Positions 9,101 to 41,891 of a DNA stretch of 64,000 nucleotides are shown piece by piece; within the stretch, counting starts at the first letter, position 1, and the number at the start of each line of letters is the position of its first letter. The position numbers and the translations under genes are program-made. This DNA is from an uncultured Gammaproteobacteria bacterium (GTDB lineage Bacteria > Pseudomonadota > Gammaproteobacteria > UBA9214), in assembly GCA_963753755.1 (NCBI GenBank), contig CAVWDM010000005.1, positions 138,559 to 202,558 on the forward strand, in the 5' to 3' direction. The notes beneath the pieces are model-generated. The model did not search any database and was not told where the DNA came from. It saw nothing but the letters and a program-made list of their open reading frames with translations.

Positions 9101-9157
9101 CGGAGCGTGCCCCGGGAGTTGGCAAGGTGGCCGCCCTGCATTCCCGGGGCGTCATAC

Positions 9158-11902
9158 TCAGGCCTTGTAGACCTTGATGGCGGCCTTCTTGAAGTCGGTC
9201 TCCTTCGACATCGGGCAGGTCACATCAAGGCACAGTTTGTTGACAAACACGGCCTCGTCAAAGAACGGTACGAAGGTATAGCCCTTCGCTGGCCGGTTGC
9301 GTCCCTGGGTCTCCACCACGGCCTTGACCTTGCCGCGGCGTGATTCCAGCCAGGCGATATCATTGCGCTGCAGGCCACGTTTTTTGGCGTCGTCCGGGTG
9401 CATGAAGATCACGGCCGTCGGCACGGCACGGTGCAACTCTGGTACCCGGCGGGTCATGGTGCCGGTGTGCCAGTGTTCCAGCACGCGGCCGGTGTTCAGC
9501 CACAGGTCGTAATTGCTGTCCGGTTGCTCCGGTGGCGCCGCATAGGGACGGAAGAAGATCTTTGCCTTGCTGGCCAGGCTGGTCTTCTCCTGGTTGGTGA
9601 CCTTGTCCAGGTCGCCACTCGGCAAGGCCTTGAGCGCCTTGCCGTAGAAGTCGAAGCCGCTGCCTTTCGCGCAATAGGGGTCATACTCTTCGTTGAAGCG
9701 CCACTGGGTTTCCTTGCCGTCGACGACCGGCCATTTCAGACCGCGCACATCGTCACCGTAGTAGACATCGAATGCCGCCAGGTCATGGGCATGTCCGACG
9801 CCAAACTGGCGGTATTCGTCGAACAGTGCCTTTTCCGGAAACCAGCCATCGCCGAGTTTCTCGGCCACGTGGTTGTCGTGTCCCTTGGCCACCGATTCAT
9901 CGGGCCACTTGACCTTGCGGTTGTCCGCGTTGGCGAACAGTACCTCGTAGAGGGTGTCATCGGGTGAGTAACCCATCTTCTGCGCCTCGGCCAGCACGCT
10001 GGGCAGCTTGCCATTATCGAAACCCTCGGCCTCGAGCCCCGGCACATTCTGCTCGCCCCAGACCTCCTTGAGCGTGAAGCGCTTGGAAAACTCCAGGCCC
10101 TGCCAGACATCACCCATGGCCTCGCCGGGCGGTGCCACCTGCTGCCGCCAGGCCTGGGTACGTCGTTCTGCATTGCCGTACAGGCCCCACTTCTCAAAGA
10201 TCATGGCGGTTGGCAGTATCAGGTCCGCCACCTTCGCCGAGACGGTGGGATAGGGATCGGACACCACAATGAAATTATCCATGTCGCGGGCTGCCTTGAT
10301 CCAGTGGTTGGCATTTGCGGTTGCCTGGAAGGGGTTGTTGACCTGTACCCAGGCCCACTTGATCTGACCGTCCTCGAGGTCGCGCATGATCTTGGTAATG
10401 TGGCTGCCGACCTTGGGATTGAGGGTGCTGGGCGGCAGTTTCCAGAGCTTCTCGCTGAATGCCCGGTGTGCCGGGATGGTGACCACGAGGTCAGCCGGCA
10501 GTCGATGGGCGAAGGTACCCACCTCACGTGCGGTACCGCAGGCGGAGGGCTGGCCGGTGAGCGAGAAGGCACCGTTGCCCGGCATGCACTGCTTGCCGAG
10601 CAGCAGGTGTATCGCATAGTTCTGCTCGTTGACCCAGCTGCCGCGGTAGTGCTGGTTGAAACCCATGGTCCAGAAGCTGACCACCTTGCGGTTCGGATCG
10701 ACATACAGCTCGGCCAGTTGCTTGAGTTTGCCCTTGTAGGTCTCCGGATCCTCGTCCGGATCACCCTTCGACAGTTGTGCCACGAAGTCCAGAGTGTAGG
10801 GCTCCACGCCCTTCTTGAAGTCCTCGTAGCTGATCATCCAGTGTGCAACCGGTTTCCTGGTGTTGTTCTGTTCCACCACTTCGCCCGCCTTTCTGCGCTG
10901 GCCGATGGCCTCATCCTTGTCGAGCGTCACCCTGAGCTCCTTGACCTGGATATCCTTCTCGGCCTCGAAACAGTACTTGTCTGTCGGGCGCATGCCGTAA
11001 CCGATATCATAGGGGCCGGTAGCAAACACGCAATGCTTGTTGACGAAGTCCTGGTTGACGGCATCGCGCTTGATGATCTCGCGCAGCAGGTAGTTCTGGA
11101 TGGCGAGGTCAGTACCCGGTTTGAAGATGATCTCGGTATCGGCGATGTCGGAGGTCTGGTTGCTCATGGTGGTCAGGTTGATGAGCTTGACGTTGTCATC
11201 CGTCAGCCGTCTATCGGAGACGCGTGCCCACAGGATCGGGTGACACTCGGCCATGTTGGCGCCCCAGGTGACAACGGTATCGGTGTGCTCGATGTCGTCG
11301 TAGTTACCGGCCGGTTCGTCGATGCCGAAGGTCTGGATGAAGCCCACCACGGCCGAGGCCATGCAGTGGCGTGCGTTGGGATCGATGTTGTTGCTGCGGA
11401 AACCGGCCTTCATCAGCTTCGCCGAGACATAGCCTTCCGGGATGGTGTACTGGCCGGAGCCGAAGATGGCGATGCCGTGTGGCCCCATTTCCCGGTAGGT
11501 CTTCTTGAACTGTTTTTCCATTTCGTCGAAGGCGCGTTCCCAGCTCACCGCCTGGAACTTGCCCTGCTTGTCGAACTTGCCGTCCGTCATGCGCATCAGT
11601 GGCTGGGTGAGACGGTCCTTGCCGTAGATGATCTTGCCGTTGAAGTAGCCCTTGATGCAGTTCAGCCCCCTGTTCACCGGTGCATCCGGGTCACCCTTGG
11701 TGGCGACGATGCGGCCGTCGCGGGTACCGACCATAATGCCGCAGCCGGTACCACAGAAGCGGCAGACGCCCTTGTCCCACTGTACTCCGGCCTCGGCCTC
11801 TTTAGATTTCGCCAGTGCGGCGGCGGGAATGGTGATGCCGGCGGCAGTGGCGGTGGCCGCCGCGGCACTGGTCTTGAGAAATTCTCTGCGTGTGACGTCC
11901 AT
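9158..11902 (-). CDS. napA: periplasmic nitrate reductase catalytic subunit NapA (Mo-bisMGD)
   Basis: 914 aa; twin-arginine signal ([22 protein letters not shown]); N-terminal CxxCxxxC...C FeS motif (CRFCGTGCG); Nap-type molybdopterin motifs ([15 protein letters not shown]). Confidence 0.9.
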
Positions 11903-12905: not shown

Positions 12906-13430
12906 ATGTTTGGTGATCCCCTGAAAAGCATCTGCGAAGATTCACTGGAAAGAAAGTGGATCTGGATATCCCTGTTGCTGGCGTTCTTTATGGCCGGTAT
13001 GCTGGGTTTTTATGCGGTGGCCAGCAACATCCACCCGCCGAGCAATGTTGAAACCATTGACTCCTCGCGACTGCACCTGACGGAAGAATTTGCAGAGGAC
13101 AAGCTGGGAGTAACCACCAATGCGGATGGCAGTCTCACCGTTACCCTGGTGGCGGCCCGCTATGGTTTCTATCCACCGGTCATCGAAGTGCCGGCCGACA
13201 CGCCGGTGACCTTCCGCATCGCCAGCGCCGATGTGCTGCACGGTGTGCATGTGCCCTTTACCAACATGACCACCATGATCGTGCCGGGCTATATATCCGA
13301 GGTAAGGACGAGCTTTCCGCGCACCGGGGAGTTCTCCCTGCTGTGTAATGAATACTGCGGCCTCGGGCATGATTCCATGTGGTCGCGCCTGGTGGTGGTT
13401 CCTAAATCCGTGGGGGGGGCTTCATCATGA
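12906..13430 (+). CDS. heme-copper oxidase subunit II (CuA cupredoxin; ba3/sNOR-type, no cytochrome c domain)
   Basis: One N-terminal TM helix plus a cupredoxin domain with the CuA motif HGVHV...CNEYCGLGHDSM. AGGAGG RBS 7 nt upstream of the ATG at 12906. ATGA overlap with the subunit I gene. Confidence 0.8.
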   Translation: MFGDPLKSICEDSLERKWIWISLLLAFFMAGMLGFYAVASNIHPPSNVETIDSSRLHLTEEFAEDKLGVTTNADGSLTVTLVAARYGFYPPVIEVPADTPVTFRIASADVLHGVHVPFTNMTTMIVPGYISEVRTSFPRTGEFSLLCNEYCGLGHDSMWSRLVVVPKSVGGASS

Positions 13431-15050
13431 GCCGGTCAAATGCTGCCGGTATCAGCCTGGCAAGTATGTGGGTGGGTTTTACGGCCTTTGCCGTCGCGGC
13501 CCTGCTGGGTGTTTACCAGGTCATTGAAAGGATCGATCTGATCCCCGCGCTGCAATCGCCGGAACTGTATTTCGGCTCGGTGTCGACCCACGGGGTGCTG
13601 ATGGCGTTCGTGCTGACCACCTTCCTGGTGATGGGATATGGCTATTACACGGCGACCACCAGCCTTGATCAGGCGTTGTGGAACAAGCCACTGGCCTGGT
13701 TCGGTTTCTGGCTGGCCGTGATCGGTGTGCTGCTGGCGGCCGGGCCGCTGCTCACCGGTAATGCCTCGGTGCTGTATACCTTCTACCCGCCACTGCAAGC
13801 GCATCCGGCATTCTACCTCGGTGCCACGCTGCTGGTGGTGGGTTCCTGGGTGTGGTGCCTGGAGATGGTCATGATGATGACCATCTGGAAGAAGGCGCAC
13901 CCGGGTGAAACCGTGCCGCTGGCGATGTACGGCACCACGGCGAATGCCATTCTCTGGTTTATTACCAGTCTCGGGGTTGCCGCGGAAGTGCTGTTTCAAC
14001 TGCTTCCCTGGTCACTGGGGATTATCGAGACCGTCGACGTCGGCCTGGCGCGAACCCTGTTCTCCTGGACCCTGCACGCGATTGTGTACTTCTGGCTGTT
14101 CCCGGCCTACATCGCGCTGTACACCCTGTTGCCGAGTGCAGCGGGTGGCCGCTTGTTCAGTGACCAGATGGGGCGGCTGGCGTTTATCATGTTGCTGGTG
14201 TTTTCGGTGCCTATCGGTTTTCACCACCTGTACATGGATCCGTTTCAGGCGGCCGGCTGGAAGTTCCTGCACATGATGGGCACCTTCATGGTGGCCGTGC
14301 CAACCCTGATTACCGGTTTTACCATCATTGCCTCGCTGGAGATTGCCGGCAAGTTGCGTGGTGGCAAGGGGCTGTTTGGCTGGATTGGCGCGCTGCCCTG
14401 GGGTAATCCCATGGTGCTGGCGAGCCATACTGGCGATGCTGATGCTCACCTTCGGTGGCTTCGGCGGCATGATCAATGCCAGTTATGCCATGAACACCAT
14501 GGTGCATAACACCCAGTGGGTCACCGGCCACTTTCACCTCATCTTTGCAGGGACCACGGTGATCATGTACTTCGCGATTGCCTATACTCTGTGGCCGAAG
14601 ATGACGGGGCGAGCGCTGTATTCAACGCGCATGGCGTTGCATCAACTGTGGTTGTGGTTTGTCGGCATGTTGATCCTGACACTGCCCTGGCACCAGCTTG
14701 GACTGGCCGGCCAGCCACGGCGTATCTCGTCGACACCGTATGACGAATCCTTCGTGCAGGCATGGCTACCGGCCGGATCCGCCATGATCGTCGGTGGTGT
14801 CATCCTGTTTATCTCGGCGCTGATGCTGGTCTACAACCTGTTCAGGACGCATGGCAACGCCCGGGCGGAAGACAATCTTGAGGTCGAGTATGCCGAACCG
14901 CTGCATGCGATACAGCGCATGCCGCAGCTGATGAACAGCTTCGGTTTCTGGGTGCTGCTGGTGGTGGTGTACATGGTAGCCAGCTACGGTTATCCCATAG
15001 CACAGTTTTTCCTCATGGATACCTACGGTACTGTCCCATGGAGCATATGA
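13427..15050 (+). pseudogene. heme-copper oxidase subunit I (B-family / NOR-like), interrupted by a frameshift near 14410-14420
   Basis: Two overlapping ORFs in different frames (13427..14509 and 14328..15050) together give a ~540-aa subunit I (...HHLYMDPF..., ...WVTGHFHLIF..., ...GYPIAQFF...). Continuity is ...GNPMVLA|ILAMLMLTFGG..., implying a single 1-nt indel. Confidence 0.7.
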
Positions 15051-18551: not shown

Positions 18552-19130
18552 ATGTCTGCAAGAAAAACACTCGCAGTGCTATTGGGGTCCGGTCTGTTGC
18601 TGGGTGCCGCCCACGTGTCAGCGGCACCGACCGCCACCATGCTGGCTGATACATGTGCCGGTTGTCATGGCACCGATGGTGCCAGCACGGGGCCAGCCAC
18701 ACCCTCGCTCGCCGGAATGTCGGAGACCTACATGGTCGATTCCATGAAGGCCTTCAAGAGCGGTGAACGTCACAGCACGGTCATGGGCCGTATCGCCAAG
18801 GGCTACAGTGACGAAGAGTTTCAGCTCATGGCCTCGGTGTTCGCCAAACAGCCGATTCCAGTAACCAGCCAGACAACGGATGCCGCCAAGGTGGCAGCCG
18901 GTGAGAAGTTATACGGCGATAACTGTGAAAAATGCCACGATGAAAAAGGTGGCCTGGCCGATGACGATGCCGGCATCCTCTACAGTCAATGGCTTCCCTA
19001 CCTGCAGTATTCCATGCAGGACTTCAAGGGTGATGCAAGAGAGATGCCCAAGAAGATGAAAAAGAAGGTCGACGCGCTTAGCGATGCCGAGATTGAAGCA
19101 TTGTTGCAGTTCTTCGCCAGTCAACAGTAG
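18552..19130 (+). CDS. fccA: flavocytochrome c sulfide dehydrogenase, dihaem cytochrome subunit
   Basis: Signal peptide and two CxxCH motifs (CAGCH, CEKCH). Immediately upstream of the FccB flavoprotein gene. Confidence 0.75.
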   Translation: MSARKTLAVLLGSGLLLGAAHVSAAPTATMLADTCAGCHGTDGASTGPATPSLAGMSETYMVDSMKAFKSGERHSTVMGRIAKGYSDEEFQLMASVFAKQPIPVTSQTTDAAKVAAGEKLYGDNCEKCHDEKGGLADDDAGILYSQWLPYLQYSMQDFKGDAREMPKKMKKKVDALSDAEIEALLQFFASQQ

Positions 19131-19145
19131 GGGAGATAAAGAATC

Positions 19146-20423
19146 ATGAACAAGATTAATCGCAGAAGTTTCATCAAGATCGCGGGTGGTGCCACGGCTG
19201 CCAGCGCGATCGGTTTCCCCATGATCGCCGCAGCAGCTGGCAAGAAGCAGGTCGTTATCGTCGGTGGCGGTACCGCGGGCGCGACCGCCGCCAAGTACAT
19301 CCGCCGGGCTGATGCCACGGTCGAGGTGACACTGATCGAGCCGAACAAGGATTACTATACCTGTTACCTGAGTAACGAGGTCATTGGTGGCGGTCGCAAG
19401 CTGGATAGCCTCAAGTTCGGCTACGACGGTCTGCGCAAGCACGGCGTCACGGTGGTACACGATACCGTCACCGCGATCGATGCCAAGGGACAGAAGGTGA
19501 CGACCCAGGGTGGCAAGAGCTTCAGCTATGACCGCTGTATTGTCGCCCCCGGTATTTCCTTTGTTGACAATATCGAAGGCTATGACGCGGCCGCCATGGA
19601 GAAGATGCCGCATGCCTGGAAGGCGGGTGCACAGACTGCACTGCTGCGCAAGCAGCTGGAAGCCATGGCTGACGGTGGCACGGTGTTGATTGCACCGCCA
19701 CCGAATCCCTTCCGCTGTCCGCCCGGCCCATACGAACGTGCCTGCCAGATCGCCAGCTACCTGAAGAGCCACAAGCCGAAATCAAAGGTCCTCATCATTG
19801 ATAAAAAGGACTCGTTCTCCAAGCAGGGCTTGTTCACACAGGCCTGGGACCGGCACTACAAGGGCATGATTGAATGGGTCAAGGCAGTTGATACCGGCGG
19901 CGGCGTACAGAGCGTCGATGCCAAGACCGGCACGGTCTCCACGGAGTTCGAGGAGTACAAGCCGGCCGTTGCCAATATTATCCCGGCACAGGTCGCCGGT
20001 AGTATTGCCAAGACAGCCGGTTTGACCGATGACAGCGGCTGGTGCCCGGTTACCGGCAAGACCTTCGAGTCGACCATCCACAAGGGTATTCACGTGATCG
20101 GCGATGCAGCCATCCAGGCACCGTTGCCGAAGTCCGGCTATGCTGCCAACTCCGAGGCCAAGGTTGTCGCTGCCGCGGTCGTGGATCTCGTCAACGGTCG
20201 CGAACCGGGTACGCCGTCCTGGGTCAATACCTGTTACAGCATCGTGGCCCCGAATGACGGTATATCGGTCGCCATGGTCTACAACCTGGTAGACGGCAAG
20301 GTCGCGAAGGTCGAGGGTTCCGGTGGCCTGACGCCGATGGACAGCTCGCCGGAAGAGCGTGCCCGTGAGGTGCAGTATGCCTACAGCTGGTTCAATAACA
20401 TCACCAGCGATATTTTTGACTGA
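19146..20423 (+). CDS. fccB: flavocytochrome c sulfide dehydrogenase flavoprotein subunit (FCSD/SQR-family FAD protein)
   Basis: Tat signal ([17 protein letters not shown]), FAD-binding [16 protein letters not shown], and FCSD-like sequence throughout. Confidence 0.8.
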
Positions 20424-20495: not shown

Positions 20496-20969
20496 ATGAA
20501 TACAAACATGAAGCGTCGGCTGTTCCTGAAGGCCTCTGTGGCGGCCGGGACGGTCGGGATGGCTGCTGGTGCCGGTCTGTTGATGCCCAGGACCGTGCTG
20601 GCCGCCTGGAACGAGGCCGCATTCAAGGCCGATTCCATGGGCGCTGCCCTGAAGGCAGGCCTGGGCAGCGATGCCGCGACGGAGTCCGCCGAGGTGAAGC
20701 TGGATGTGCCTTCTAATCCGGAGAATGGTGCCGTGGTACCGGTTGCAGTGAACACCACGCTGGCCGGCGTACAATCGATCGCGATACTGGTGGAAAAAAA
20801 TCCCAGCCCGCTGTGCGGCGTCTTTAATCTCGGCAAGCGCATGAAGCCGCAGGTCTCCATTCGTGTGAAGGTGAGCGAGTCGGCCGATATCATTGCCGTG
20901 GTGAAAGCGGGGGACGCGCTCTACAGCGCGCGGACATCCGTCACGGTCACAGTCGGCGGCTGTGGGTGA
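20496..20969 (+). CDS. soxY: thiosulfate-oxidation carrier protein SoxY
   Basis: Tat signal (MKRRLFLKASVAAGTVGMAAGAG) and a C-terminal ...VTVGGCG swinging-arm cysteine motif. Confidence 0.85.
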   Translation: MNTNMKRRLFLKASVAAGTVGMAAGAGLLMPRTVLAAWNEAAFKADSMGAALKAGLGSDAATESAEVKLDVPSNPENGAVVPVAVNTTLAGVQSIAILVEKNPSPLCGVFNLGKRMKPQVSIRVKVSESADIIAVVKAGDALYSARTSVTVTVGGCG

Positions 20970-23940: not shown

Positions 23941-24306
23941 TCATGTAATGAAGTTTCCTGGGAACAACAGGCGACTCGGGTAACCGGGTTGCAGCAGGAA
24001 ACCCTCGACATAATGGGCATAGTCCTCGCGTACACCACGTACCAGGATAATCCAGGAAATGTAGACACCCGGGAGTAGCAACACCAGTATCAGCGGTAAA
24101 TAAGTGACCTTCAATGACCACGCTGCCACCGGCAGCAGGTACAGGGGCCAGCTGAACAATGTGCCGCGCAGTCCGTGTTTCAGGCCGAGTACCACGCGTG
24201 CGATGTGTCGACGCAGACGCTGCGTGCGCGAATTGTAGACACTCAGGAACACCCCGCGCTCGAAGTCATTGTGTATATCCGAGAGGCGTTTCGATGATTG
24301 CTGCAT
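23941..24306 (-). CDS. small membrane-flanked (bacterial PH-like) domain protein
   Basis: ATG 10 nt after the stop of the FeS-membrane-anchor gene; ~120 aa with two TM segments. The listed ORF has an N-terminal extension that overlaps the upstream gene. Confidence 0.4.
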   Translation of the reverse strand: MQQSSKRLSDIHNDFERGVFLSVYNSRTQRLRRHIARVVLGLKHGLRGTLFSWPLYLLPVAAWSLKVTYLPLILVLLLPGVYISWIILVRGVREDYAHYVEGFLLQPGYPSRLLFPGNFIT

Positions 24307-24316
24307 GATCTTCAGG

Positions 24317-26158
24317 TCAGTGGCAATCCGGTAATACACCCACCTGCGGCATGTTGGCGAGGCCGGTCTCGCGGGCATGTTCTTCAAAACCCCTGTTACG
24401 CCAGAAAAAGGCACCGGGCAGGGTGGTTGGAATGACCAGGGCGTAAAACAGGGCGCGGCCAATCAGTGCGCTGCCGACAATACTGATTGCAGTGACTAGC
24501 CACATGAACAGCGCGGTGTTGCCGTCGGGGTTTAGCAGGCTGATTAGCCCCAGCATCAGCATGGACAGTCCAATACCGGTGTTGCGCAGCAGGTAGGTGT
24601 TTCCGAATTTCGTTCTTTGATCATAGTGCGAGGCCGCGCCTTCACCGCCACCACACCGCAGGTCGCGCGCATGGTAGTACAAACCAACGGCTTCCAGCGC
24701 CAGGCCGCACAGCATAAGCCCGGCCAACCCATGCACGGTGCTTGACCAGGGCAGACCCTGCAACAGTTGAGCGGCCATGTATACCAGCACCACCAGCAGT
24801 GGCCCCAGTGCCAGCATGCTGCCATAGAATGAGGTCAGTACCTGCCAGTGGTTCCAGTAGGGCCGGGCGGGTATGCGGTAGATGCTGTGCATGAAATACA
24901 GTGCCGCGATCCCCGCGATGACCGCACCCCAGCCGCATAGCTGTGCCAGCGCGTTGCTCAACCCGGCTGGCAGCCATGTAAACAGCATGGGCAGGCCGCT
25001 TAACAGCGTATAGGCACCGAGGAAGTTGTAGAACACGGCGATGCCGGCGACCTCGCGGCTCACCGGTGAATGACGCAGATTATTAAATGCACGGTAGAAA
25101 CGATGCGGGCGACCCAGGTGCAGGGTCGACATCACCAGTGCCAGTGTCTGTATGCTGATTAATCCAAACAGCAATAACGGCCGGGCGACCGGGTGGTTGG
25201 CCATGCTCAGCATTTCAACGCCCACTAGTGGGCCGATAAACAGAGTAATAAAGGCACCAATGACCGCCTGTGAAACCAGTGTGAAGATCACCAGCGGGTC
25301 TTCGCGGGTACGCAGTTTTATCAGGTTCCATGCACGGCCGGCTCCTGATTCGTCGACCTTGGGTTTGTAGGCGCCGCCCGGTCGCTGTTCGTCACGTTCG
25401 TAGCGCAGGGGCATGCTGTCGGTGCGTTTCATTTCACGAGGCAGACTGCGGGTTTGCTGAAAACGGATATTCGGATGGGTGATCTCCGGCGTTGGAAACC
25501 CCGGTATCTGTGTTTCCAGTTGATCGCGGTTCTCCGGCGTGGTCTCGATGATGCCGAAGTCCAGTGCACCGGCGAGGCAGGCCGATGCGCAGGCCGGTTT
25601 CAGGCCGACCTCGAGCCGGTCAACGCACATGTTGCACTTCGACACGTGACCGGCGGCGCTGTCCAGTTGTGGTGCATTGTAGGGGCACACCCAGGTGCAG
25701 TAGCCGCAACCGAAACAGATATCCGGATCCTGCAGTACGGCGCCGTACTCGGCGAACTTGGTGTAGGCCCGTGTCGGGCAGCCCTTCAGGCACACCGGGT
25801 CGTCGCAATGGTTGCAGGCCATGGAGATATTCATGCGCTGGTAAGCGGGGTAGGAACCCCCTTCCACGTAGCCGACGGCACGGAAGGCAATATGCGCCGG
25901 CAGGTCGTTCTTCTCGGAACAGGCCGCCTCGCAGGCATGGCAGGCAATGCAGTTGTCGGCATTGAAATAAAAACCGTGCTGCTTGTAGCGGTTCGGGTTG
26001 TCCGACACGCTACTGTCGCCGTTGATGTTCAGTGACTGGCCGCGTAGCGGGTCACCTGGCGGTACGGTTTCGGTGGATCTGCCGTAGCGATTGGTCTGCG
26101 GTGCTTCCACGTCAGGCACAAAGGCGTAGGCGGGTTCCTTGGGACGTGCTTCAAACAT
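24317..26158 (-). CDS. fusion of a DmsB-like 4x[4Fe-4S] ferredoxin subunit with a DmsC/NrfD-like integral membrane anchor
   Basis: N-terminal half has four ferredoxin Cys clusters (CIACHACEAAC, CNHCDDPVCLKGCP, CFGCGYCTWVCP, CNMCVDR...CASAC). C-terminal half has ~8 TM helices typical of DMSO-reductase anchor subunits. It lies directly downstream of the molybdoenzyme gene. Confidence 0.7.
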   Translation of the reverse strand: MFEARPKEPAYAFVPDVEAPQTNRYGRSTETVPPGDPLRGQSLNINGDSSVSDNPNRYKQHGFYFNADNCIACHACEAACSEKNDLPAHIAFRAVGYVEGGSYPAYQRMNISMACNHCDDPVCLKGCPTRAYTKFAEYGAVLQDPDICFGCGYCTWVCPYNAPQLDSAAGHVSKCNMCVDRLEVGLKPACASACLAGALDFGIIETTPENRDQLETQIPGFPTPEITHPNIRFQQTRSLPREMKRTDSMPLRYERDEQRPGGAYKPKVDESGAGRAWNLIKLRTREDPLVIFTLVSQAVIGAFITLFIGPLVGVEMLSMANHPVARPLLLFGLISIQTLALVMSTLHLGRPHRFYRAFNNLRHSPVSREVAGIAVFYNFLGAYTLLSGLPMLFTWLPAGLSNALAQLCGWGAVIAGIAALYFMHSIYRIPARPYWNHWQVLTSFYGSMLALGPLLVVLVYMAAQLLQGLPWSSTVHGLAGLMLCGLALEAVGLYYHARDLRCGGGEGAASHYDQRTKFGNTYLLRNTGIGLSMLMLGLISLLNPDGNTALFMWLVTAISIVGSALIGRALFYALVIPTTLPGAFFWRNRGFEEHARETGLANMPQVGVLPDCH

Positions 26159-26267
26159 GACGGCTAATTTCTGTTAAATATCCGCAGCAGCGCAACGCAT
26201 GCGCGATTGCACGGCAACAATAAACGCGCTTGCGATGGGCTGCTGTATGTGGGTGTATAAATCTTCA

Positions 26268-28481
26268 TCAGAACGCCCGGGCAGCCAGATTGCGCACGGC
26301 GGCGGCTTCCTGGTCGGCGATCGGTTCGACGCGAACGGCACATTGCTTGTAGGCCGGCTGGCGCGAATGCGGATCGAGCAGGCCGAGCGACAGGCGATTC
26401 ACACACTCATGGTAATGAAACGGGATAAATACCATGTCGCGCGAGACGCGCTGTGTGCACTGCACCATCACCACGGCATCACCGCGGCGCGAGGTCAGGC
26501 GGGCATAAGAGCCATGCTCGATGCCGAGTTCGCTCGCTGCATCCGGGTTCATCTCCATGTAAGGGGTGGGGCTGAATTTGTTGCCGTTACCGATCTTGCC
26601 GGTACGGGTGCGGGTATGAAAGTGTTCCACCACGCGACCGGAGTTCAGCCAGAACGGGTATTCCTCGTCGGGGTGTTCGTTGTTGTCAATAAATGGCAGT
26701 GCGATCAGTTTTGCCTGGCCGCTGGCAAACTGGAATTTTCCATCGGTGTACAGGCGCTGCGATCCCCCGGGTGCCGTGTCCTCGTTACAGGGCCACTGGA
26801 TGCCGCGACTGGCCTCGATCTTGTCGTAACTCATGCCCGAGTAATCCAGCAGGCGGCCCTTTGACAGCGTTTTCAGTTCCTCGAACACGCCTTCGGCCGT
26901 TTCAGGGAAATTGATCTTGCGGCCCTGTTCGAAGCGACGGGCAACCTGGTTGAAGATCCATAAATCGGTTTTCGAATTACCGTACGGTGCACAGACATTG
27001 CGTATCAGGTTGACGCGTCGCTCGGTGTTGGTGAAGCAGCCTTCCTTTTCGGCCCATATGGCTGCGGGCAGGAACACGTGGCTGTACTCGTTGGTCTCGA
27101 CATCGCGGTAGGCGTCCTGTACTACCAGGAACTCCAGTTTTTCCAGCGTCTTGCGGATGCGTGCCGTATTGGCCATGGAGGTCATCGGGTTGGTGGCGAT
27201 CAGCCACAGTCCCTTGATCTGGCCGGATTCGATCGCGGGCAGGATGTCGGTCATGAACAGGCCGCGCTTTTCCGGGAAAAATCGCCTCATCGACGCCCCA
27301 GAACGCCGCGATGTCCTTGCGGTCCTGCGCGTTTTCCAGTGCGCGGTAACCCGGCAGACCGGAGCAGGATGACCATTCACGTGTGCCCATGGCATTGCAC
27401 TGTCCGGTGATGGACAGGCTGGAGCCGCCGGGCTTGCCGATGTTGCCGGTGATCAGGTTGAGGTTGTTGATGGCGACCACGCCGTCGGAGCCGTGCGTGC
27501 TCTGGTTGATGCCCATGGTCCAGATGGTCATGGCGGTGCCGGCCTGGCCATAGACGCGTGCGACATTGCGAATGGTGTCTTCATCGATGCCGCAGATCCT
27601 TGATGCCGTGACCGGGTCGTATTGTTCGACCAGTTGTGCGAATTCCTCAAAGCCCTCGGTATGCGCCTTGATATAGCTGTCATCCTGCAGGCCTTCCTCG
27701 AGGATGACATGTGCCAGGGCATTCAGTAGCACCAGGTCGGTGCCCGGTGCGACCGGCAGATGTATGTCGGCATTCTGTGCAAACATCGTGACACGTGGGT
27801 CCACCACGATCAGCGGGAATTTGCGTTGTTCACGCATCTGCTGCAGGCGCCAGTAGATAATCGGGTGCTGCTCGGGCAGGTTGGAACCAAACGCCAGCAG
27901 GCAATCGGTGTGCTCGAAGTCATCATAGCAGCCGGGTGGTCCGTCGGAGCCAAAGGAGCGCTTGTAGCCGGAAACTGCCGACGACATGCACAGCGTGGTG
28001 TTGCCATCGTAGTTGTTGGTGCCGATCACGCCACGGGCCAGCTTGCCGAGGGTATAGAATTCCTCGGTCATGATCTGTCCGGTGGAGACAATCGAAAGGC
28101 ATCGCGTCCGTAGGTTTCCTGGATACGCTTGATCTCGCCGCTGGTCCTGTCCAGTGCCGTATTCCAGCTGGTGGGTATGAAATCCTCCCAGCGGTTGTTG
28201 CGCATCAGCGGTTGTTCACCGCGCCCGGCCGTCTTGCGGAACAGCTCGTGTTCAAACATGCCCTTGATGCAGAGTTTGCCGCGATTGACATCGGCATCGG
28301 CGACGCCCCGCGAGGCCACCGGTGCATTGTCGGCGTTCAGGCCGACTTCTATGGAACAGCCGGTTGAGCAGTAACCACAGGTCGCGTAGCGCCATTCCCT
28401 GACGTCCTTGTCAGCAATCCTGATGGGGTTCTTTTTTTTTCGTCCGAACAGCATGACCAGGTTCCGTATTTTGAACAACAA
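26268..28481 (-). pseudogene. nasA: cytoplasmic Nas/NarB-type molybdopterin oxidoreductase (assimilatory nitrate reductase-like catalytic subunit), split into three ORFs by two frameshifts
   Basis: ORFs 28068..28481 (N-terminal CGYCSTGCS FeS domain, no Tat signal), 26977..28071 (MTEEFYTLGKLARGVIGTNNYDGNTTLCMSSAV..., Nap/Nas/Fdh-type) and 26268..27395 (C-terminal MGD-binding domain). They lie in frames 2/0/2, so there are two frame changes, near 28100 and 27300. The 5' end contains an A9 tract encoding KKK. Confidence 0.75.
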
Positions 28482-28561: not shown

Positions 28562-28891
28562 TTATGCAGCAGCCTCGTTGCTCGACAGGGCCAGGAATAC
28601 CCGGCCGTTCTCGACGCGGGTGGCGTAGGTGTTGGTGCATCCCTCGTCCGGGCCAAGTGCCTCGCCACTGGCGAGATCGATCTTCCAGTTATGCAGCGGG
28701 CAGGTCACGGAGGTGCCGTGCACGATGCCCTGCGACAGCGGGCCCTTCTGATGCGGGCATTCATCCTTGATGGCGAATACCTCGTCGCCAGAAGTGCGAA
28801 ACAGGGCAATGTTGACAGTGTCTGTTTTCAGTACCCGTGCACCCAGCCTCGGGATGTCCTCCAGTTTTGCAATTTCAGTCCAGTCGTTCAT
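28562..28891 (-). CDS. nirD: nitrite reductase small subunit NirD (Rieske-type)
   Basis: 109 aa with the Rieske motif CPH...CPLH (ECPHQKG...CPLHNW). Confidence 0.85.
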   Translation of the reverse strand: MNDWTEIAKLEDIPRLGARVLKTDTVNIALFRTSGDEVFAIKDECPHQKGPLSQGIVHGTSVTCPLHNWKIDLASGEALGPDEGCTNTYATRVENGRVFLALSSNEAAA

Positions 28892-29157
28892 TGGTTATAC
28901 CCCGGGTAAATATCTGTCGCAGACGACGCAGAGAACACGGCGATTATGAGTGCAGGTTCTTTTTCGGCCGGCGGGTAAACCCGGGTTGCCCGGTTTCCGA
29001 AAAACGCTGGATAGCCGCCATCGCGGTGATGACGTGTTGTGCAGAATCCGGGTGCCCGGATGTCATGAAGTCGTATTCCTGCAAGCGCAGTTGCAGTTGC
29101 TCATCGTATTCTTTATCCATCGTTATTACCTCTGTGTTGTCTGTGGCGTAAACTCGT

Positions 29158-31592
29158 TTATGCAATCTTGAGTGGTGTGAATTCATGTGCCTCGCTGCCC
29201 TCGGCGCGCGCTTTCCACGGATCGATCTGAGCGAACTGCTGTGAATACAGGAAACGTTCATGCAGGGCCTTGCGATTGGCCTCGTTGTTGAGGATCTTTT
29301 CCTTTACATGGCTCAGGCCAACGCGTTCCACCCAGGGTGCCGTGCGTTCCAGGTAGTGTGCTTCCTCACGATACAGCTGGATGAAGGCGCCGCAGTATTC
29401 CAGCACCTGTTCCTCGGTATCGACCTTGGTCAACAGGTCGGTGACACGGACCTTGATGCCGCCATTGCCACCGATGTGCAGTTCGTAGCCGGAATCCACA
29501 CACACCACGCCAAAGTCCTTGATGGTGGCCTCGGCACAGTTGCGCGGGCAGCCGGAGACGGCCAGCTTGAACTTGTGCGGCATCCATGAGCCCCAGGTGA
29601 GTTCTTCAAGCTGTACGCCGAGACCGGTCGAGTTCTGGGTGCCGAAACGGCACCAGGTCTTGCCGGCACAGGTCTTCACGGTGCGCATGGCCTTGCCGTA
29701 GGCATGACCGGAGACAAAGCCGGCCGTGGACAGGTCATTCCACATGAACGGCAGGTCTTCCTTCCTGACGCCGAACAGGTCGATGCGTTGACCGCCGGTT
29801 ACTTTCATCTCCGGCACATTGAACTTGTCGCAGACATCGGCAATGGCGCGCAGTTCGTCCGGCTTGACCAGGCCGCCGAACATGCGCGGAACCACGGAGT
29901 AGGTGCCGTCTTTCTGGATGTTGCCGTGCGCGCGTTCGTTGATGAAGCGTGACTGCGCATCATCCTGGTATTCGTCCGGCCAGTGGGCACAGCAGGTAGT
30001 AATTCAATGCCGGCCGGCAGGCGGCACAACCGTCGGGCGATTTCCATTCGAAGAATTCGCGCACCGCCGGCATGGACTTCAGTCCTGTTTCTTGATCCCG
30101 GCGATCACCTCGTCATGGCTGTACTCGGTGCACTTGCACATCGGTTTTTTATTCGGCGAGGCGTCATAGCCTTCACCCACGGTGCTGGCCAGCAGTGCCT
30201 CGACCAGCCCGGTGCAGGAACCGCAGGAACTGGAGGCCTTGGTATGGGCACGCACATCTTCCAGTGTAAACAGGCCGTTCTTTGGCGATGGCATTGACGA
30301 TGTCGCCCTTGCAAACACCGTTACAACCGCAGATCTCGGCCTCGTCGGAGAGCGGCATGACGCGTGTCTCGTCGCCATGACCGGCATCGCCGAGGTCATG
30401 CTGGCCGAACAGGATGGTCTTGCGAAAATCGGCAACGCTGCTGCCTTCGCGCATCAACTGGAAGTACCAGGTGCCGTCGATGGTATCGCCGTAGAGCACC
30501 GCACCCTTGATGCGGTTGTCCTTGATGACCAGCTTCTTGTAGGTGCCCGCGGCCGGGTCCTGCAGGCTGATGACCTCATCGCCTTCCGCTTCGTTGAAAT
30601 CACCGGCGGAGAACAGGTCAATGCCGGTGACCTTCAGCTTGGTGGAGGTCACCGAGCCCTTGTAGCTGGCATAGCCGAGGTCGGCGAGCTGATTGGCAGC
30701 CACCTTGGCCTGTTCGAACAGCGGCGCCACCAGCCCGTAGGCAATGCCGCGGTGCTGTGCACACTCACCCACGGCGTAGATGGCCGGGTCAAAGGTCTGC
30801 ATGGCGTCATTGACGACGATGCCGCGTTCGCAGTGCAGCCCGGCCTCTTTGGCAAGTCGTGCAATTCGGCAGGATACCGACACCCATAACCACGAGGTCG
30901 GCCTCGACGACACTGCCATCCTTGAAGCGCACGCCCTGCACGCGGCCGTTACCGATTATTTCCTCGGTGGCTGCCTCCATCAGGAAGTTCATGCCGCGCT
31001 GTTCCAGCGAGGCCTTCAGCAGGGCCGATGCCGGCTTGTCGAGCTGGCGTTCCATGAGGCTGTCCAGAAGGTGTACGACCGTGACATCCATGCCCTGTTT
31101 CATCAGGCCGTTGGCGGCTTCCAGTCCCAGCAGACCGCCGCCGATGACAACCGCCTTTTGGTAATCCTTTGCTGCCTGCAGCATGGTGTCGACATCGTGA
31201 ATATCGCGGAAGGCGATGACGCCATCCTTGTCCTTGCCCGGCACCGGAATCATGAACGGGTTGGAGCCGGTGGCCAGCAACAGGCGGTCGTACTCGGCCG
31301 TGGTGCCGTCATCGGCAATGACCTTCTTGTTCAGGCGATCAATGTCGGTCACTGATTTGCCTTTATGGAGGGTAATGCCATTGTCGCTGTACCACTGTTC
31401 GTCATTGAGCATGATGTCATCGACGGTCTTCTCACCAGCGAGTACCGGTGACAGCATGATGCGGTTGTAGTTACCGTAGGGCTCGGCGCCGAACACTGTG
31501 ATGTCGTATTTATCCGGAGCGATTTTCAGCAACTCTTCCAGGGTGCGTACCCCGGCCATGCCGTTGCCTACCAGTACCAGTTTTTCTTTCAT
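29158..31592 (-). pseudogene. nirB: NAD(P)H-nitrite reductase large subunit NirB, broken by at least three frameshifts
   Basis: N-terminal FAD/NAD domain (MKEKLVLVGNGMAGVRTLEEL...) in ORF 30807..31592; middle in 30173..30919 and 30079..30435; C-terminal sirohaem/FeS domain in 29158..29895. The pieces lie in three different frames across a ~2.4-kb span that matches an ~810-aa NirB. Confidence 0.8.
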
Positions 31593-32016: not shown

Positions 32017-32634
32017 ATGAAAATTGACTTGTTTTTTTGCAGATCAAATCATATGGGGTCGCTGGTGAACTTGCTGGTCGTTGCGGAACAAGCGGGACAA
32101 AGTGCTCCCTATATCAAGGCGGCCAGTAAGGCCGGCTGGCACATCGCGTCTGAGCTGAGCTATGACCGTTTGCCGGTGGCGTTGACAGATATCCAGGTGG
32201 ATGCCGCCGTGTTGATCGCACAGTGTATCGACGACAACGTTCTCAAGGCTGTGCGCCTGTTTAACAGCCGCTGGCCCTTGCCGGTGGTGTTGTACACCGA
32301 CGATTCACATCAGCGTTCTATTCGTGCAGCGGTAATGGCCGGTGTTTCCGTATATGCCGTTGATTGTCAGAACGTCAATCGCATTGCCGCGCTACTCGAT
32401 GTAGCGATGGTTCGTTTTAGTGAATCGCAGCAACTGAAAAAGGCTTTGCACAAGGCCAAAACTTCACTGACAGAGCGCAATACCGTGGAGAAGGCCAAGG
32501 GGATCATCATGCGTCAGCGCCAGCTCAACGAGGATGCCGCCTACAGGTTGTTGCGCAAGCTCGCCATGGATCGTAACCGGCGTATCGGCGAAGTGGCCGG
32601 AGAAGTCATTGCCGCTGCCGAGGTGTTGATCTGA
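32017..32634 (+). CDS. nasT: ANTAR-domain response regulator NasT (nitrate-responsive antiterminator)
   Basis: REC-like N-terminus and C-terminal ANTAR motif (EKAKGIIMRQRQLNEDAAYRLLRKLAMDRNRRIGEVA). Divergent from nirB. Confidence 0.8.
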   Translation: MKIDLFFCRSNHMGSLVNLLVVAEQAGQSAPYIKAASKAGWHIASELSYDRLPVALTDIQVDAAVLIAQCIDDNVLKAVRLFNSRWPLPVVLYTDDSHQRSIRAAVMAGVSVYAVDCQNVNRIAALLDVAMVRFSESQQLKKALHKAKTSLTERNTVEKAKGIIMRQRQLNEDAAYRLLRKLAMDRNRRIGEVAGEVIAAAEVLI

Positions 32635-34882: not shown

Positions 34883-34884
34883 GA

Positions 34885-36318: not shown

Positions 36319-36361
36319 TTTTTTTATTCACACACTTCCATAGTGAAACAGGAGAGAGTCG

Positions 36362-37882: not shown

Positions 37883-39292
37883 ATGTACATGAAGATCAAG
37901 CTGGACTGGACATCGCTGGCTAACGTGGGCCAGCGCATGCAGCGATCACTGTCGGCTGTTGCCGTTATGGGCCTTATGGTGGTTGCCCAGCACCCTGTCA
38001 TGGCAGGTGAGCTGGAAAAGGAAGATCTGAAATTCGGCTTTATCAAGCTGACTGATATGGCGCCCCTGGCGATTGCCTACGAGAAGGGGTATTTCGAGGA
38101 TGAGGGTCTGTACGTCATGCTGGAAGCGCAGGCCAACTGGAAGGTGCTGCTGGATCGTGTCATCGATGGTGAACTGGATGGTGCCCACATGCTGGCCGGT
38201 CAGCCACTGGGCGCAACCATCGGTTTTGGTACCAAGTCGGATATCATTACCGCGTTCAGCATGGACCTGAACGGTAACGGTATTACGGTCTCCAACAGTA
38301 TCTGGGAGCAGATGAAGGAGCACGTCCCGCACCAGGACGGTAAGCCCGTTCACCCGATCAAGGCGGATTACCTGAAGCCGGTGGTGGATAAGTATATCAA
38401 GGAAGGCAAGCCCTTCAAGATGGGCATGGTGTTCCCGGTCTCCACGCATAATTACGAGCTGCGCTACTGGCTGGCGGCTGGCGGTATCCACCCCGGCTTT
38501 TATGCCCCCGAAAGCGGTGATATCACCGGCCAGATCGATGCCGAGGCGTTGCTGTCCGTGACACCACCACCCCAGATGCCATCGACAATGGAGGCCGGCA
38601 CGATCTATGGCTACTGCGTCGGTGAGCCCTGGAACCAGCAGGCCGTATTCAAGGGCATTGGCGTACCGGTGATTACCGATTATGAGATCTGGAAGGACAA
38701 TCCCGAGAAGGTCTTCGGTGTTTCAAAAGAATGGGCTGAGGAGAATCCGAATACCCACAAGGCGGTACTGAAGGCGCTGATCCGGGCCGCGATGTGGCTG
38801 GATTCCGGTGGTCTGGAAAACCGCAAGGAAGCGGCGAAGATCATGTCGCGCCCGGAGTATGTTGGTGCTGACTACGAAGTGATTGCCAACAGCATGACCG
38901 GTACCTTCGAGTACGAAAAGGGCGACAAGCGCTCGGTACCTGATTTCAACGTGTTCTTCCGTTACAACGCCACCTATCCGTATTACTCGGATGCTGTCTG
39001 GTACCTGAGCCAGATGCGCCGCTGGGGACAGATCGGCGAGTACAAACCGGATAGCTGGTATATGGACACGGCGAAGCAGGTGTACCGCCCGGATCTGTAT
39101 GCCGAGGCCGCTGAGGAACTGATTGCCGAGGGCAAGGCGAAGGCGGAAGACTTTCCTGATTTTGCCAGCGAGACCGGGTTCCGTGCGCCGCAAACAGAGT
39201 TTATCGATGGCATCACCTACGATGGCACCAAGCCAAATGCCTACCTTGCACAGTTCCCGATAGGCCTGAAAGGCGAGGACAAGGTGAACTGA
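37883..39292 (+). CDS. nrtA: nitrate/nitrite ABC transporter periplasmic substrate-binding protein (NrtA/CmpA family)
   Basis: Signal peptide plus NrtA-family sequence, followed by permease and ATPase genes. Confidence 0.75.
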
Positions 39293-39370
39293 TCAGTACA
39301 TGCCGTTGGCCATTGGCCCGCACGCCACCCCGTGTGCGGGCCTTTTTTAAATGAGCGAGTAGAGGGTGAT

Positions 39371-40337
39371 ATGTGTACGGAAACGATGAAGATATTTCAG
39401 CTGCAGGACTACCAGGAGGCCGCCAGGGCATTCTTATTGCCACTGATCGCCTTTCTCCTGTTTCTCGGCTTGTGGAGTTTTGCAGCATCACGCATCGAGA
39501 CGTCACTGGGGCAGTTGCCCGGACCTGCAGCGGTCTGGGAGCAGGCGAGTAATCTGGTCGCTGAACACCGTGCAGGAACGCGACAAGGCGCTTGCCTTTA
39601 TCGAGCGTCAGGAAGTGCGCAACCAGGCAAAGCTGGCGAAAGACCCGAGCGCAGAGGTACGCATCCGTCCCTATACGGGCAAACCGACCTTCTTTGACCA
39701 GATCGGCACCAGTCTGCTGACCGTGTTTACCGGCTTTCTGCTGGCAACGGTCATCGCGGTGCCGCTGGGTGTATTCACCGGCTTGAGCAGTAATGTTTAC
39801 CGGGCAATCAATCCGATTGTGCAGATCTTCAAGCCGGTGTCGCCGCTGGCGTGGCTGCCGATTGTCACCATTATCGTCAGTGCCGTTTATGTCACCGATG
39901 ACCCTATGTTTTCCAAATCCTACGTGACCTCCGCCATCACCGTCACCCTGTGTTGCCTGTGGCCGACCCTGATCAACACGGCGGTCGGTGTGTCATCCAT
40001 GGATCGGGACCTGGTGAATGTCGGCAAGGTGCTGCGCCTTGGCTGGTTCACCACGGTATGGAAGATTGCGTTGCCCTCGGCTGTTCCGATGATCTTTACC
40101 GGTCTGCGCCTGAGCCTGAGTATTGGCTGGATGGTGCTGATTGCAGCGGAGATGCTGGCACAAAATCCGGGGTTGGGTAAATTCGTCTGGGATGAATTCC
40201 AGAATGGCAGCTCCAATTCGCTGGGCCGCATTATGGTGGCCGTGTTTACCATCGGACTGATCGGATTCTTGCTGGATCGCATGATGCTGCTGCTGCAACG
40301 TCGTGTGTCCTGGGACAAGGACGCTGTATTGCGCTAG
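39371..40337 (+). pseudogene. nrtB: nitrate ABC transporter permease NrtB, N-terminus frameshifted
   Basis: The N-terminal TM segment is in ORF 39332..39697 and the rest in 39480..40337 in another frame; junction at about 39540-39560 (...GPAAVWEQA... then ...[19 protein letters not shown]...). The downstream part is a typical ABC permease (EAA-like region). Confidence 0.7.
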
Positions 40338-40381
40338 TGCCGAAGCGGCGTGCCACAGAATCAGATTTATTAAGGGAGTGA

Positions 40382-41263
40382 GTGATGAGTGATAAATATC
40401 TGAATATTGATCACGTGTCGATGGTGTTCGACACACCTGCCGGACCGTTCAAGGCGCTAGATAACGTCGACCTGGTGATCGCAAGGGGTGAGTATGTCTC
40501 GCTGATCGGTCATTCGGGTTGCGGCAAGTCGACGGTACTGAATGTCGTTGCTGGTTTGTTGCAGGCCACCACAGGCGGTGTGGTGCTCGATGGTACCGAG
40601 GTCGATGAACCCGGCCCCGAGCGAGCAGTTGTATTCCAGCACCATTCGCTGATGCCATGGCTGACGGCCTATGAAAATGTTGAACTGGCCGTTCAGCAGG
40701 TATTCAAGGGAAAAAAGAGCAAGCCCGAGATGCGCGAATGGATTGAATACAATCTGAAGCTGGTGCATATGGAACATGCCATGGATAAATTACCCGGTGA
40801 AATCTCCGGCGGCATGAAACAGCGTGTCGGCATTGCACGCGCACTCGCGATGCAACCCAAGGTGTTGTTGATGGATGAGCCGTTCGGTGCACTGGATGCG
40901 CTGACGCGTGCACACATGCAGGATTCACTGATGGAAATTCAGAACGAACTCGGCAATACCGTGATCATGATTACGCATGATGTTGATGAAGCGGTACTGT
41001 TGTCTGATCGAATTGTCATGATGACCAATGGTCCGGCAGCCACCATCGGGCAGATTCTTGACATCAAGCTGGAGCGACCGCGTAACCGCGTTGCCCTGGC
41101 GGATAGCGCCGAGTACAACCATTACAGGGCGGAAGTGCTGAAGTTCCTCTATGAACGCCAGCGCAACCCCGAGTCGGGAGATAGCAATAGCAGGAAGGAT
41201 AATGTGCAGGGAAGCGCGGAGGACAAACCGTTACAGGTGGTTGCCGGTATTGCCGCCGCCTGA
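40382..41263 (+). CDS. nrtD: nitrate/sulfonate/bicarbonate ABC transporter ATP-binding protein (NrtC/NrtD-like)
   Basis: Walker A GHSGCGKST, ABC signature LSGGMKQRVGIARAL, Walker B LLMDEPFGALD. Confidence 0.8.
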   Translation: MMSDKYLNIDHVSMVFDTPAGPFKALDNVDLVIARGEYVSLIGHSGCGKSTVLNVVAGLLQATTGGVVLDGTEVDEPGPERAVVFQHHSLMPWLTAYENVELAVQQVFKGKKSKPEMREWIEYNLKLVHMEHAMDKLPGEISGGMKQRVGIARALAMQPKVLLMDEPFGALDALTRAHMQDSLMEIQNELGNTVIMITHDVDEAVLLSDRIVMMTNGPAATIGQILDIKLERPRNRVALADSAEYNHYRAEVLKFLYERQRNPESGDSNSRKDNVQGSAEDKPLQVVAGIAAA

Positions 41264-41880: not shown

Positions 41881-41891
41881 AGTGACAGGAG

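Follow-up and report, generated by a model that had tools for sequence, protein, structure and literature searches.

Within a 64,000-nucleotide stretch of the genome of an uncultured gammaproteobacterium of the UBA9214 lineage (contig CAVWDM010000005.1, positions 138,559 to 202,558; hereafter the window), we analyzed a minus-strand gene cluster composed of nirB, nirD, a gene encoding a molybdenum bis-pyranopterin guanine dinucleotide (Mo-bisPGD) enzyme, and a gene encoding a protein in which a four-cluster iron–sulfur (FeS) domain is fused to a membrane anchor (table 1). We refer to the last two genes as the module and to their products as the Mo subunit and the fusion. An initial annotation made from the sequence alone had placed these four genes in this order on one strand, with a single FeS/membrane-anchor polypeptide directly downstream of the Mo gene; all of these elements were recovered, and the fusion is an intact open reading frame (ORF). 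The bPH label given to the small membrane protein that follows the fusion was not borne out: the ORF is 121 and not 173 amino acids long, neither version matches a Pfam family at E ≤ 0.01, and just ~30 residues follow the hydrophobic segment. Among 134 related loci, 38 have a detectable copy of this small protein downstream of the fusion.

Table 1. Features of the minus-strand cluster and of its divergent flank (coordinates are positions in the window)
Feature	Coordinates	Strand	Basis
nirB, large subunit of NADH nitrite reductase	29158..31592	-	tblastn with NirB of reference locus L001 gives three high-scoring segment pairs (HSPs) in three frames
nirD, intact, Rieske ligands CPH...CPLH (NasG-like)	28562..28891	-	Rieske_2 and Rieske domains; TIGR02378 at 98 bits, above cutoff
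Mo subunit, Nas/Nap-type Mo-bisPGD catalytic subunit without a twin-arginine translocation (Tat) signal, ~728 amino acids once repaired	26268..28454	-	Pfam domains, motifs, own clade
ORF segments of the Mo gene	28481/28454..28068, 28071..26977, 27395..26268	-	ORF map
Frameshift 1 of the Mo gene, 1 nt fewer than in L001 and L098	28090..28100	-	DNA alignment, codon-usage segmentation
Frameshift 2 of the Mo gene, 1 nt more than in L001 and L098	27279..27289	-	DNA alignment, codon-usage segmentation
Fusion, 613 amino acids, intact: N-terminal extension, four-cluster FeS domain, basic linker, DmsC-like anchor of eight transmembrane (TM) helices	24317..26158	-	
DmsB/PsrB-like 4x[4Fe-4S] domain of the fusion, ~residues 60-205	25544..25981	-	16 Cys
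DmsC-like membrane domain of the fusion, ~residues 286-574, eight TM helices	24437..25303	-	positive loops on FeS side
Small membrane protein, 121 amino acids	23941..24306	-	no known Pfam domain
ANTAR-domain (NasT-like) regulator, divergent from nirB	32017..32634	+	
NrtA-like binding protein, then two ORFs that presumably complete a nitrate ATP-binding cassette (ABC) transporter	37883..41263	+	NMT1_2 at 325 bits (37883..39292)

The three fragments into which the frameshifts divide the Mo gene together carry the Pfam domains Molybdop_Fe4S4, Molybdopterin, and Molydop_binding, and comparison with orthologs places the homologous start at the ATG at 28454, not at the TTG at 28481. Both motifs noted at first reading, CGYCSTGCS and TNNYDGNTTLCMSSAV, are present in the translation, and the four cysteines of the N-terminal [4Fe-4S] (FS0) site are retained (CGYCSTGC...C). 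The Mo subunit has no match to the TAT_signal model of Pfam, whereas the NapA of the window (9158..11902) does match it. Among solved structures, the closest are the FdhF of the hydrogen-dependent CO2 reductase (HDCR) and Desulfovibrio NapA, both at ~430 bits, with thiosulfate reductase (2vpw_A) far below them. NCBIfam models score 585 (Fdh-alpha), 518 (NasC), 170 (PhsA), and 21 bits (narG), an order that does not discriminate given that genuine NasA proteins show the same ranking (Fdh-alpha, then NasC, NasA_Halo, and NapA) and that none of the models reaches its cutoff. In NCBI and IMG, members of the family are named “nitrate reductase” or “assimilatory nitrate reductase catalytic subunit.”

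Active-site motifs are more informative than profile scores. The clade of the Mo subunit has the signature CGYC, NYDGNTTLCM[SA]SAV, and ITGQCNAMGTRE, which reads CGYC, LCMSSAV, and TGQCNAMGTRE in the window. The motifs LCM[SA]SAV and TGQxNAMGxRE are common to the Mo family, NasA, and NapA and are absent from FdhF: where the Mo family has LCM and TGQCNAMG, the FdhF references have YCQ and RGHNNVQG, and the HDCR FdhF aligns LCH with LCM. We rejected a formate dehydrogenase identity based on these Nas/Nap-type motifs and the absence of the Cys/Sec-His and RG(H/Q)NNVQG signatures of FdhF. The same evidence bears on the notion that the module has a different substrate or works in the oxidizing direction, for example as a cytoplasmic formate- or other donor:quinone oxidoreductase that merely lies inside nitrogen-assimilation clusters. 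PDB and NCBIfam scores are indeed as high for FdhF as for Nap/Nas, and SoeABC is a cytoplasm-facing enzyme able to run toward quinone (PMC8076601); however, genuine NasA proteins produce the same NCBIfam score order, the motifs are of the Nas/Nap type, and the nitrate-assimilation context recurs in unrelated arrangements, and we consider this notion very improbable.

Phylogenetic analysis separates the Mo subunit from ordinary NasA. In a neighbor-joining tree of 41 sequences (200 bootstraps; without cyanobacterial NarB and Bacillus subtilis NasC), the Mo family is monophyletic with a bootstrap of 1.0, and the classical NasA/NasC, NapA, and FdhF sequences form clades apart from it, each with a bootstrap of 1.0. 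Haloarchaeal ferredoxin-type NasA, at 36% identity, also falls outside the Mo family in this tree. The Mo subunit is 33–39% identical to classical NasA/NasC, CysJ-fused NasN, haloarchaeal NasA, a Bacillus-type homolog, and FdhF, and 28–31% identical to NapA; a NapA identity was rejected on this low identity, the separate NapA clade, and the missing Tat signal. No member of the Mo family was found in the plasmid collection, where the best identity among all records is 39%. Ralstonia NasA, Paracoccus NasC, and the product of a second Mo gene in locus L069 carry a Fer2_BFD domain, which the 728-residue Mo protein of the family lacks. The initial reading of the Mo subunit as a Tat-less, Nas-type enzyme thus holds, with the refinement that it does not belong to the ordinary NasA clade.

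The fusion contains the Pfam domains Fer4_11 (residues 111–202) and DmsC (residues 286–574, 77 bits), and its N-terminal half matches the NCBIfam model DMSO_dmsB at 158 bits; its only name in NCBI and IMG is “DmsC/YnfH family molybdoenzyme membrane anchor subunit.” The 14 family members compared share 16 invariant cysteines, arranged in four ferredoxin-type motifs; in an alignment of 75 sequences that includes distant members, 11 of these show no variation and another 4 are conserved to at least 90%. AlphaFold2 modeling from the 75-sequence alignment gives a predicted local distance difference test (pLDDT) score of 88 and a predicted TM-score (pTM) of 0.88, with eight long helices past residue 287; this alignment remedied the poor FeS domain (pLDDT 64) obtained from the 14-sequence alignment. 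Foldseek finds the N-terminal domain similar to PsrB (2vpw_B; TM-score of 0.82 normalized to the target) and the membrane domain similar to PsrC (2vpw_C) and ActC. Mutagenesis has established that H65 and E87 of DmsC are needed for menaquinol oxidation. The E. coli residues align with H347 and E369 of the fusion, which are invariant in the 14 family members and are each at least 90% conserved in the wider set. The module therefore has the elements of a complex iron–sulfur molybdoenzyme (CISM): a Mo subunit with FS0, a four-cluster protein with 16 cysteines, and a heme-less anchor with a predicted quinol site.

The orientation of the FeS domain can be predicted from the distribution of positive charge. 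The loops of the window fusion, whose 286 N-terminal residues are soluble, carry 14 lysine plus arginine residues on the FeS-domain side versus 0 on the far side; over 75 fusions the means are 15.5 and 0.76, and the bias is present in 75 of 75. E. coli DmsC, the DmsB side of which is periplasmic, has no such bias toward the FeS side. A Tat motif or signal peptide was not found in any of 61 diverse fusion sequences. A periplasmic FeS domain was rejected on these two grounds, and we predict that the FeS domain and the DmsC-type quinol-site residues face the cytoplasm, as does the Mo subunit, so that the module is flipped relative to DmsABC.

The pairing of the Mo gene and the fusion is highly conserved. 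We retrieved more than 100 full-length homologs at 71–100% identity to the fusion, and diverse representatives down to ~25% identity keep the same architecture. A scan of species-representative genomes yielded at least 80 loci, with 588 of the first 600 pattern matches encoding relatives of the fusion, and a metagenome scan added 80 further loci, mostly of the same fusion family. Of the loci retrieved, 154 have a fusion that is at least 50% identical to that of the window, and 111 of these include at least 2.3 kb of upstream sequence; in 109 of the 111, a Mo gene of the family lies immediately 5′ of the fusion in the same orientation (median gap, 75 nt). The only two exceptions are L004 and L147, where the Mo gene lies further upstream, separated from the fusion by 1.2–2.8 kb of extra DNA. 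These counts rule out a coincidental adjacency. The Mo and fusion distance matrices are correlated (r=0.67, Mantel p=0.001), more strongly than either is with NirB. Seven loci (L092 and L164–L170) are less than 50% identical to the window fusion, L164–L170 forming the informative distant set: in these distant loci the fusion is 31–33% identical and the gene order is reversed, and the neighboring Mo genes, 41–46% identical, still join the family clade with a bootstrap of 0.97. The Mo gene and the fusion are a conserved, co-evolving pair. Of 83 loci, 62 have nirB upstream of the module and 59 have nirD there.

Carriers of the module belong to the Acidiferrobacterales, Thiohalobacter, Thioalkalispiraceae, Thiotrichaceae, Thiobacillaceae, Gallionellaceae, Nitrosomonadales, Methylococcaceae/Methylocaldum, and Hahellaceae; at least 80 species-level genomes were retrieved, and the number of carrier genomes is probably in the hundreds. 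One carrier in culture is the heterotroph Litoribacillus peritrichatus, in which a major facilitator superfamily (MFS) transporter, the Mo gene, and the fusion are followed, further along, by nirB, nirD, a REC-ANTAR regulator (NasT), and NrtAB; we found no other nitrate reductase gene within the 21-kb locus examined. The two proteins of its module have the accessions WP_344800243 and WP_344800244. In the distant locus L164 (L164:2119-13389), where the fusion precedes the Mo gene, GAF-ANTAR and PII proteins, an MFS transporter, a porin, and MoaA are encoded nearby, together with a NirA-like siroheme nitrite reductase that is fused to a Rieske domain and has no NADH-binding module. This architecture hints that nitrite reduction in L164 may also be fed through FeS/Rieske carriers. 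The two contexts contain unrelated nitrite reductases and thus point to one role for the module, in nitrate assimilation.

Based on these observations, we propose that the Mo subunit and the fusion form a cytoplasm-facing, nonelectrogenic quinol:nitrate oxidoreductase of the CISM type that serves nitrate assimilation, a reading we hold to be somewhat better supported than not. Quinol would be oxidized at the DmsC-type site on the cytoplasmic (N-side) face of the membrane domain, and the DmsB-like part of the fusion, with its four [4Fe-4S] clusters, would conduct the electrons to the FS0 cluster and on to Mo-bisPGD. The Nas-type subunit would then reduce nitrate to nitrite in the cytoplasm, and NirBD would reduce nitrite to ammonium. 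Release of the quinol protons and uptake of those needed for nitrate reduction would both take place at the same membrane face, and the reaction is accordingly expected to be nonelectrogenic and to generate no proton-motive force; the module would act as an assimilatory electron sink rather than as a Nar-like redox loop. The potentials of ubiquinol and of the nitrate/nitrite couple are ~ +0.1 V and ~ +0.42 V, respectively, so the reaction would be strongly downhill. The benefit would be the sparing of NADH, which is costly for sulfur oxidizers, iron oxidizers, and methanotrophs.

Several points weigh against this proposal. We infer complex formation, the quinol donor, the nitrate substrate, and the physiological role from sequence, the first two by homology and synteny. 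The tree is a neighbor-joining tree of only 41 sequences, with neither cyanobacterial NarB nor B. subtilis NasC among them. At thresholds of at least 35% identity and at least 50% coverage, homologs of the ANTAR and Nrt proteins of the window lie beside the module in few loci. With a Rieske-type NirD, electrons from NADH could pass via NirB and NirD to the Mo subunit and bypass the fusion, and the occurrence of a classical NasA in some loci may mean that the module has a role other than plain assimilation or serves a different niche. The last two points underlie distinct alternatives.

The first is that the Mo subunit is a soluble assimilatory enzyme that is fed by NADH via NirB and NirD, as in the NasB–NasG–NasC system of Paracoccus, or, like NarB, by soluble ferredoxin or flavodoxin. 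The fusion would in that case have an accessory function, whether in tethering to the membrane, as an overflow connection with the quinone pool, or as the partner of another enzyme. The NirD of the window retains the CPH...CPLH ligands; this full Rieske set, shared with Paracoccus NasG, suggests that NirD is probably a real [2Fe-2S] electron carrier. E. coli NirD, unlike that of the window, is not known to have the full ligand set. In addition, nirBD adjoins the module in ~75% of loci, and in domain content the Mo subunit is no different from ferredoxin-type NarB or NasA. However, the fusion is a steadier neighbor of the Mo gene (109/111) than is nirBD (62/83), the Mo clade is defined by its fusion neighbor even where gene order and nitrite reductase type differ, and the Mo subunit does not have the [2Fe-2S] tail of NirB-coupled NasA/NasC; we therefore consider a soluble donor unlikely. 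The initial claim that an FeS/anchor protein takes the place of an NADH-type partner accordingly stands in part: the dedicated fusion and the missing Fer2_BFD tail favor it, and the adjacent NirB and Rieske-type NirD speak against a complete replacement.

The second alternative retains the enzyme and its electron path and assigns it a dissimilatory or redox-balancing role, either the disposal of excess reductant or the supply of nitrite for ammonification by NirBD, as in dissimilatory nitrate reduction to ammonium; classical NasA, where present, would then assimilate. A classical NasA of ~885 amino acids with a C-terminal BFD [2Fe-2S] domain is encoded just 3′ of the fusion in 11 of 94 loci (~12%), including L014, L015, L023, L045, L066, L068, and L069 (L069:12217-14949), and these clusters therefore encode two differently wired nitrate reductases; Methylocaldum and Gallionellaceae provide examples of such carriers. 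It is also established that E. coli NirBD partners the respiratory NarG, and carriers of the module are often microaerophilic or anaerobic lithotrophs. Set against this, ~88% of the loci examined have no other nitrate reductase in their flanks; the context is one of NasT/ANTAR regulators, PII, nitrate ABC and MFS transporters, and NirA-type assimilatory nitrite reductase; and a quinol site on the cytoplasmic side, with no gain in proton-motive force, fits a respiratory enzyme poorly. We regard a redox-balancing role as improbable and retain the assimilatory quinol:nitrate oxidoreductase as our working model.

The module combines features of several known systems. The initial annotation had compared its topology with that of SoeABC, and the analogy is apt given the missing Tat signal and the cytoplasmic FeS side indicated by charge bias. 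Like the module, the SoeABC of Allochromatium vinosum and Aquifex aeolicus comprises a Mo subunit, a four-cluster FeS module, and a heme-less eight-TM anchor and is predicted to face the cytoplasm, with its quinone site on the N-side, as we predict for the module. However, SoeA belongs to the Psr/Phs/Sre lineage, in contrast to a Mo subunit that is Nas/Nap-type by profile scores and by a tree that contained no SoeA reference; SoeB and SoeC are separate proteins, with SoeC of the NrfD/PsrC type, whereas the module has one fused ORF with a Pfam DmsC anchor; and Soe oxidizes its substrate and reduces quinone, whereas the module should oxidize quinol. E. coli DmsB is 39% identical to the FeS domain of the fusion, and E. 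coli DmsC is 31% identical to its membrane domain over TM1–4, with H65 and E87 conserved. DmsAB, however, is Tat-exported and faces the periplasm, and in DmsABC the B and C subunits are separate and the catalytic subunit is of another clade.

Among nitrate reductases, the classical NasA/NasC enzymes (Klebsiella NasA, and Paracoccus NasC with NasB/NasG) resemble the module in being cytoplasmic, in their Cys-ligated Mo-bisPGD and nitrate-reductase motifs, and in their location within clusters of nirBD with regulators and transporters. They differ in sequence (33–36% identity to the Mo subunit; a separate clade, bootstrap 1.0) and in possessing a C-terminal BFD-like [2Fe-2S] domain, in place of which the module has a membrane FeS partner. 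The ferredoxin/flavodoxin-dependent NarB/NasA enzymes of cyanobacteria, haloarchaea, and Azotobacter share with the Mo subunit a [4Fe-4S] cluster plus MopB and a length of ~700–730 amino acids; here the difference is that the donor of the module would be membrane-bound and not soluble, and its four-cluster domain may be viewed as a tethered ferredoxin. NarGHI is a functional analog, combining quinol-driven nitrate reduction, a cytoplasmic active site, and a four-cluster electron-transfer module. Its catalytic subunit is of an unrelated clade (the narG model gives 21 bits) and its diheme NarI has no counterpart in the module, for which neither a redox loop nor a gain in proton-motive force is expected given the predicted quinol site on the cytoplasmic side.

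SoeABC is the only N-side-facing complex in a catalog of NrfD-like systems, which lists no Nas enzyme (PMC8076601), and according to Wells et al. no member of the Fdh/Nas/Aio/Nap clade occurs with subunits of the four-cluster or membrane-anchor kind (PMC7331816). In genome papers on Gallionellaceae and Thiomargarita, the gene appears beside nirBD under the plain name nasA, without mention of the partner. Searches of an incomplete body of full-text literature turned up no account of a Nas enzyme paired with a DmsB/DmsC-type protein, and a CISM that faces the cytoplasm and joins a Nas-type catalytic subunit to a fused FeS-anchor protein is apparently undescribed so far.

Textbook assimilatory nitrate reductases draw their electrons from NADH or from soluble ferredoxin or flavodoxin, and chemolithoautotrophs make NADH by reverse electron flow. 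If our proposal is correct, a quinol-fed Nas alters the energy budgeting of nitrate assimilation in these organisms, the module is the second cytoplasm-facing enzyme of this architecture besides SoeABC, and marker-gene surveys that rely on “nasA” mix enzymes wired to different electron pools. In lineages of the L164 type, the whole path from nitrate to ammonium may draw on the quinone pool. The broader claim, that the module represents a third, hitherto unrecognized class of assimilatory nitrate reductase defined by a membrane quinol donor and widespread in sulfur- and iron-oxidizing and methanotrophic Proteobacteria, is in our view evenly poised. The idea of a quinol-fed Nas is directly testable in at least one cultured carrier, L. 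peritrichatus JCM 17551.

The copy of the Mo gene in the window is itself disrupted. The two frameshifts reported earlier, at ~28095 (−1) and ~27284 (+1), are the same relative to both intact orthologs, L001 and L098, the loci of which are 84% and 83% identical to the window in nucleotide sequence. Alignment to the same loci reveals four further 1-nt indels in nirB, at ~30864, 30280, 30091, and 29989, and none in nirD, the fusion, or the small ORF. Over the whole 64 kb, segmentation by codon usage finds frame switches in three genes only: nirB, the Mo gene, and, near 14426, a COX1-like gene. Of the seven disruptions detected, six lie inside nirB and the Mo gene, within a span of 4.6 kb. With one event in the remaining coding sequence, estimated roughly at 45–50 kb, as background, a rough Poisson estimate gives ~0.1 events expected in 4.6 kb (P ~1e-9). 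Programmed frameshifting was rejected given that 62 loci with intact genes have none of the indels and that nirB alone has four.

We think it fairly likely that this cluster of indels reflects local gene decay, in which case the Mo gene of the window is probably a pseudogene. Because six frame-breaking indels lie in nirB and the Mo gene, the nitrate-assimilation pathway has probably been inactivated in a sulfur-oxidizing host that retains NapAGHB, and the clustering suggests that the host has seemingly lost nitrate assimilation and kept periplasmic Nap. The frameshifts could instead be assembly or consensus errors, with the operon functional in the organism, and this weighs against decay: a fusion protein of identical sequence is on record from a contig of 552 kb, a length typical of long-read assemblies, the unrelated COX1 gene is also split, and the repaired Mo protein is still 84–91% identical in amino acid sequence to the intact 728-residue ortholog over three HSPs. 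We nonetheless consider errors of this kind doubtful, as six of the seven frame switches crowd into 4.6 kb, none of the nirB and Mo-gene indels lies in a long homopolymer, and the flanking genes are intact (nine orthologs).

The COX1 split is the sole frame disruption detected outside nirB and the Mo gene. This gene (13427-15050, plus strand) encodes a heme–copper oxidase subunit I of the COX1 family, and its pieces, separated by a frame switch near 14426, cover profile positions 2–297 (ORF 13427..14509) and 309–436 (ORF 14328..15050). The spacer between nirB and nirD (28892-29160) is ~160 nt longer than in L001 and L098 and holds a spurious-looking ORF (28944..29261).

Nitrogen genes elsewhere in the window comprise the ANTAR regulator divergent from nirB, the NrtA-like protein, and napAGHB (6937..11902); within the presumed transporter, 40457..41032 matches the ABC ATPase of L001 weakly (28% identity). 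The window also encodes two DabA/DabB pairs for inorganic-carbon uptake (2-4597 and 48927-53103, both on the minus strand), SoxY (20496..20969), and FccAB (18552..20423), and together with napAGHB this gene content fits a sulfur-oxidizing autotroph. Beside the ANTAR regulator (32912-36952, plus strand) lie genes for a 656-residue NAD(P)H flavoprotein that resembles the N-terminal part of NirB (Pyr_redox_2 and Fer2_BFD, without a siroheme domain), a 477-residue multiheme cytochrome, and a Tll0287-like protein. These three genes also flank the nas cluster in L001 and possibly encode an alternative nitrite or hydroxylamine reductase system. The stretch at ~41300-46200 has a G+C content of 0.47–0.48, versus ~0.58 elsewhere, and almost no coding signal by codon usage; it may be a foreign island or a degraded region. 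Another Nas-like arrangement with nontextbook partners was observed on plasmid pDrdI of Deinococcus wulumuqiensis (L091:2769-9133), in which an MFS transporter, a 773-residue MopB protein, a 4Fe-4S dicluster protein, a Rieske protein, a DUF6755 protein, and a nitrate/nitrite transporter are encoded together.

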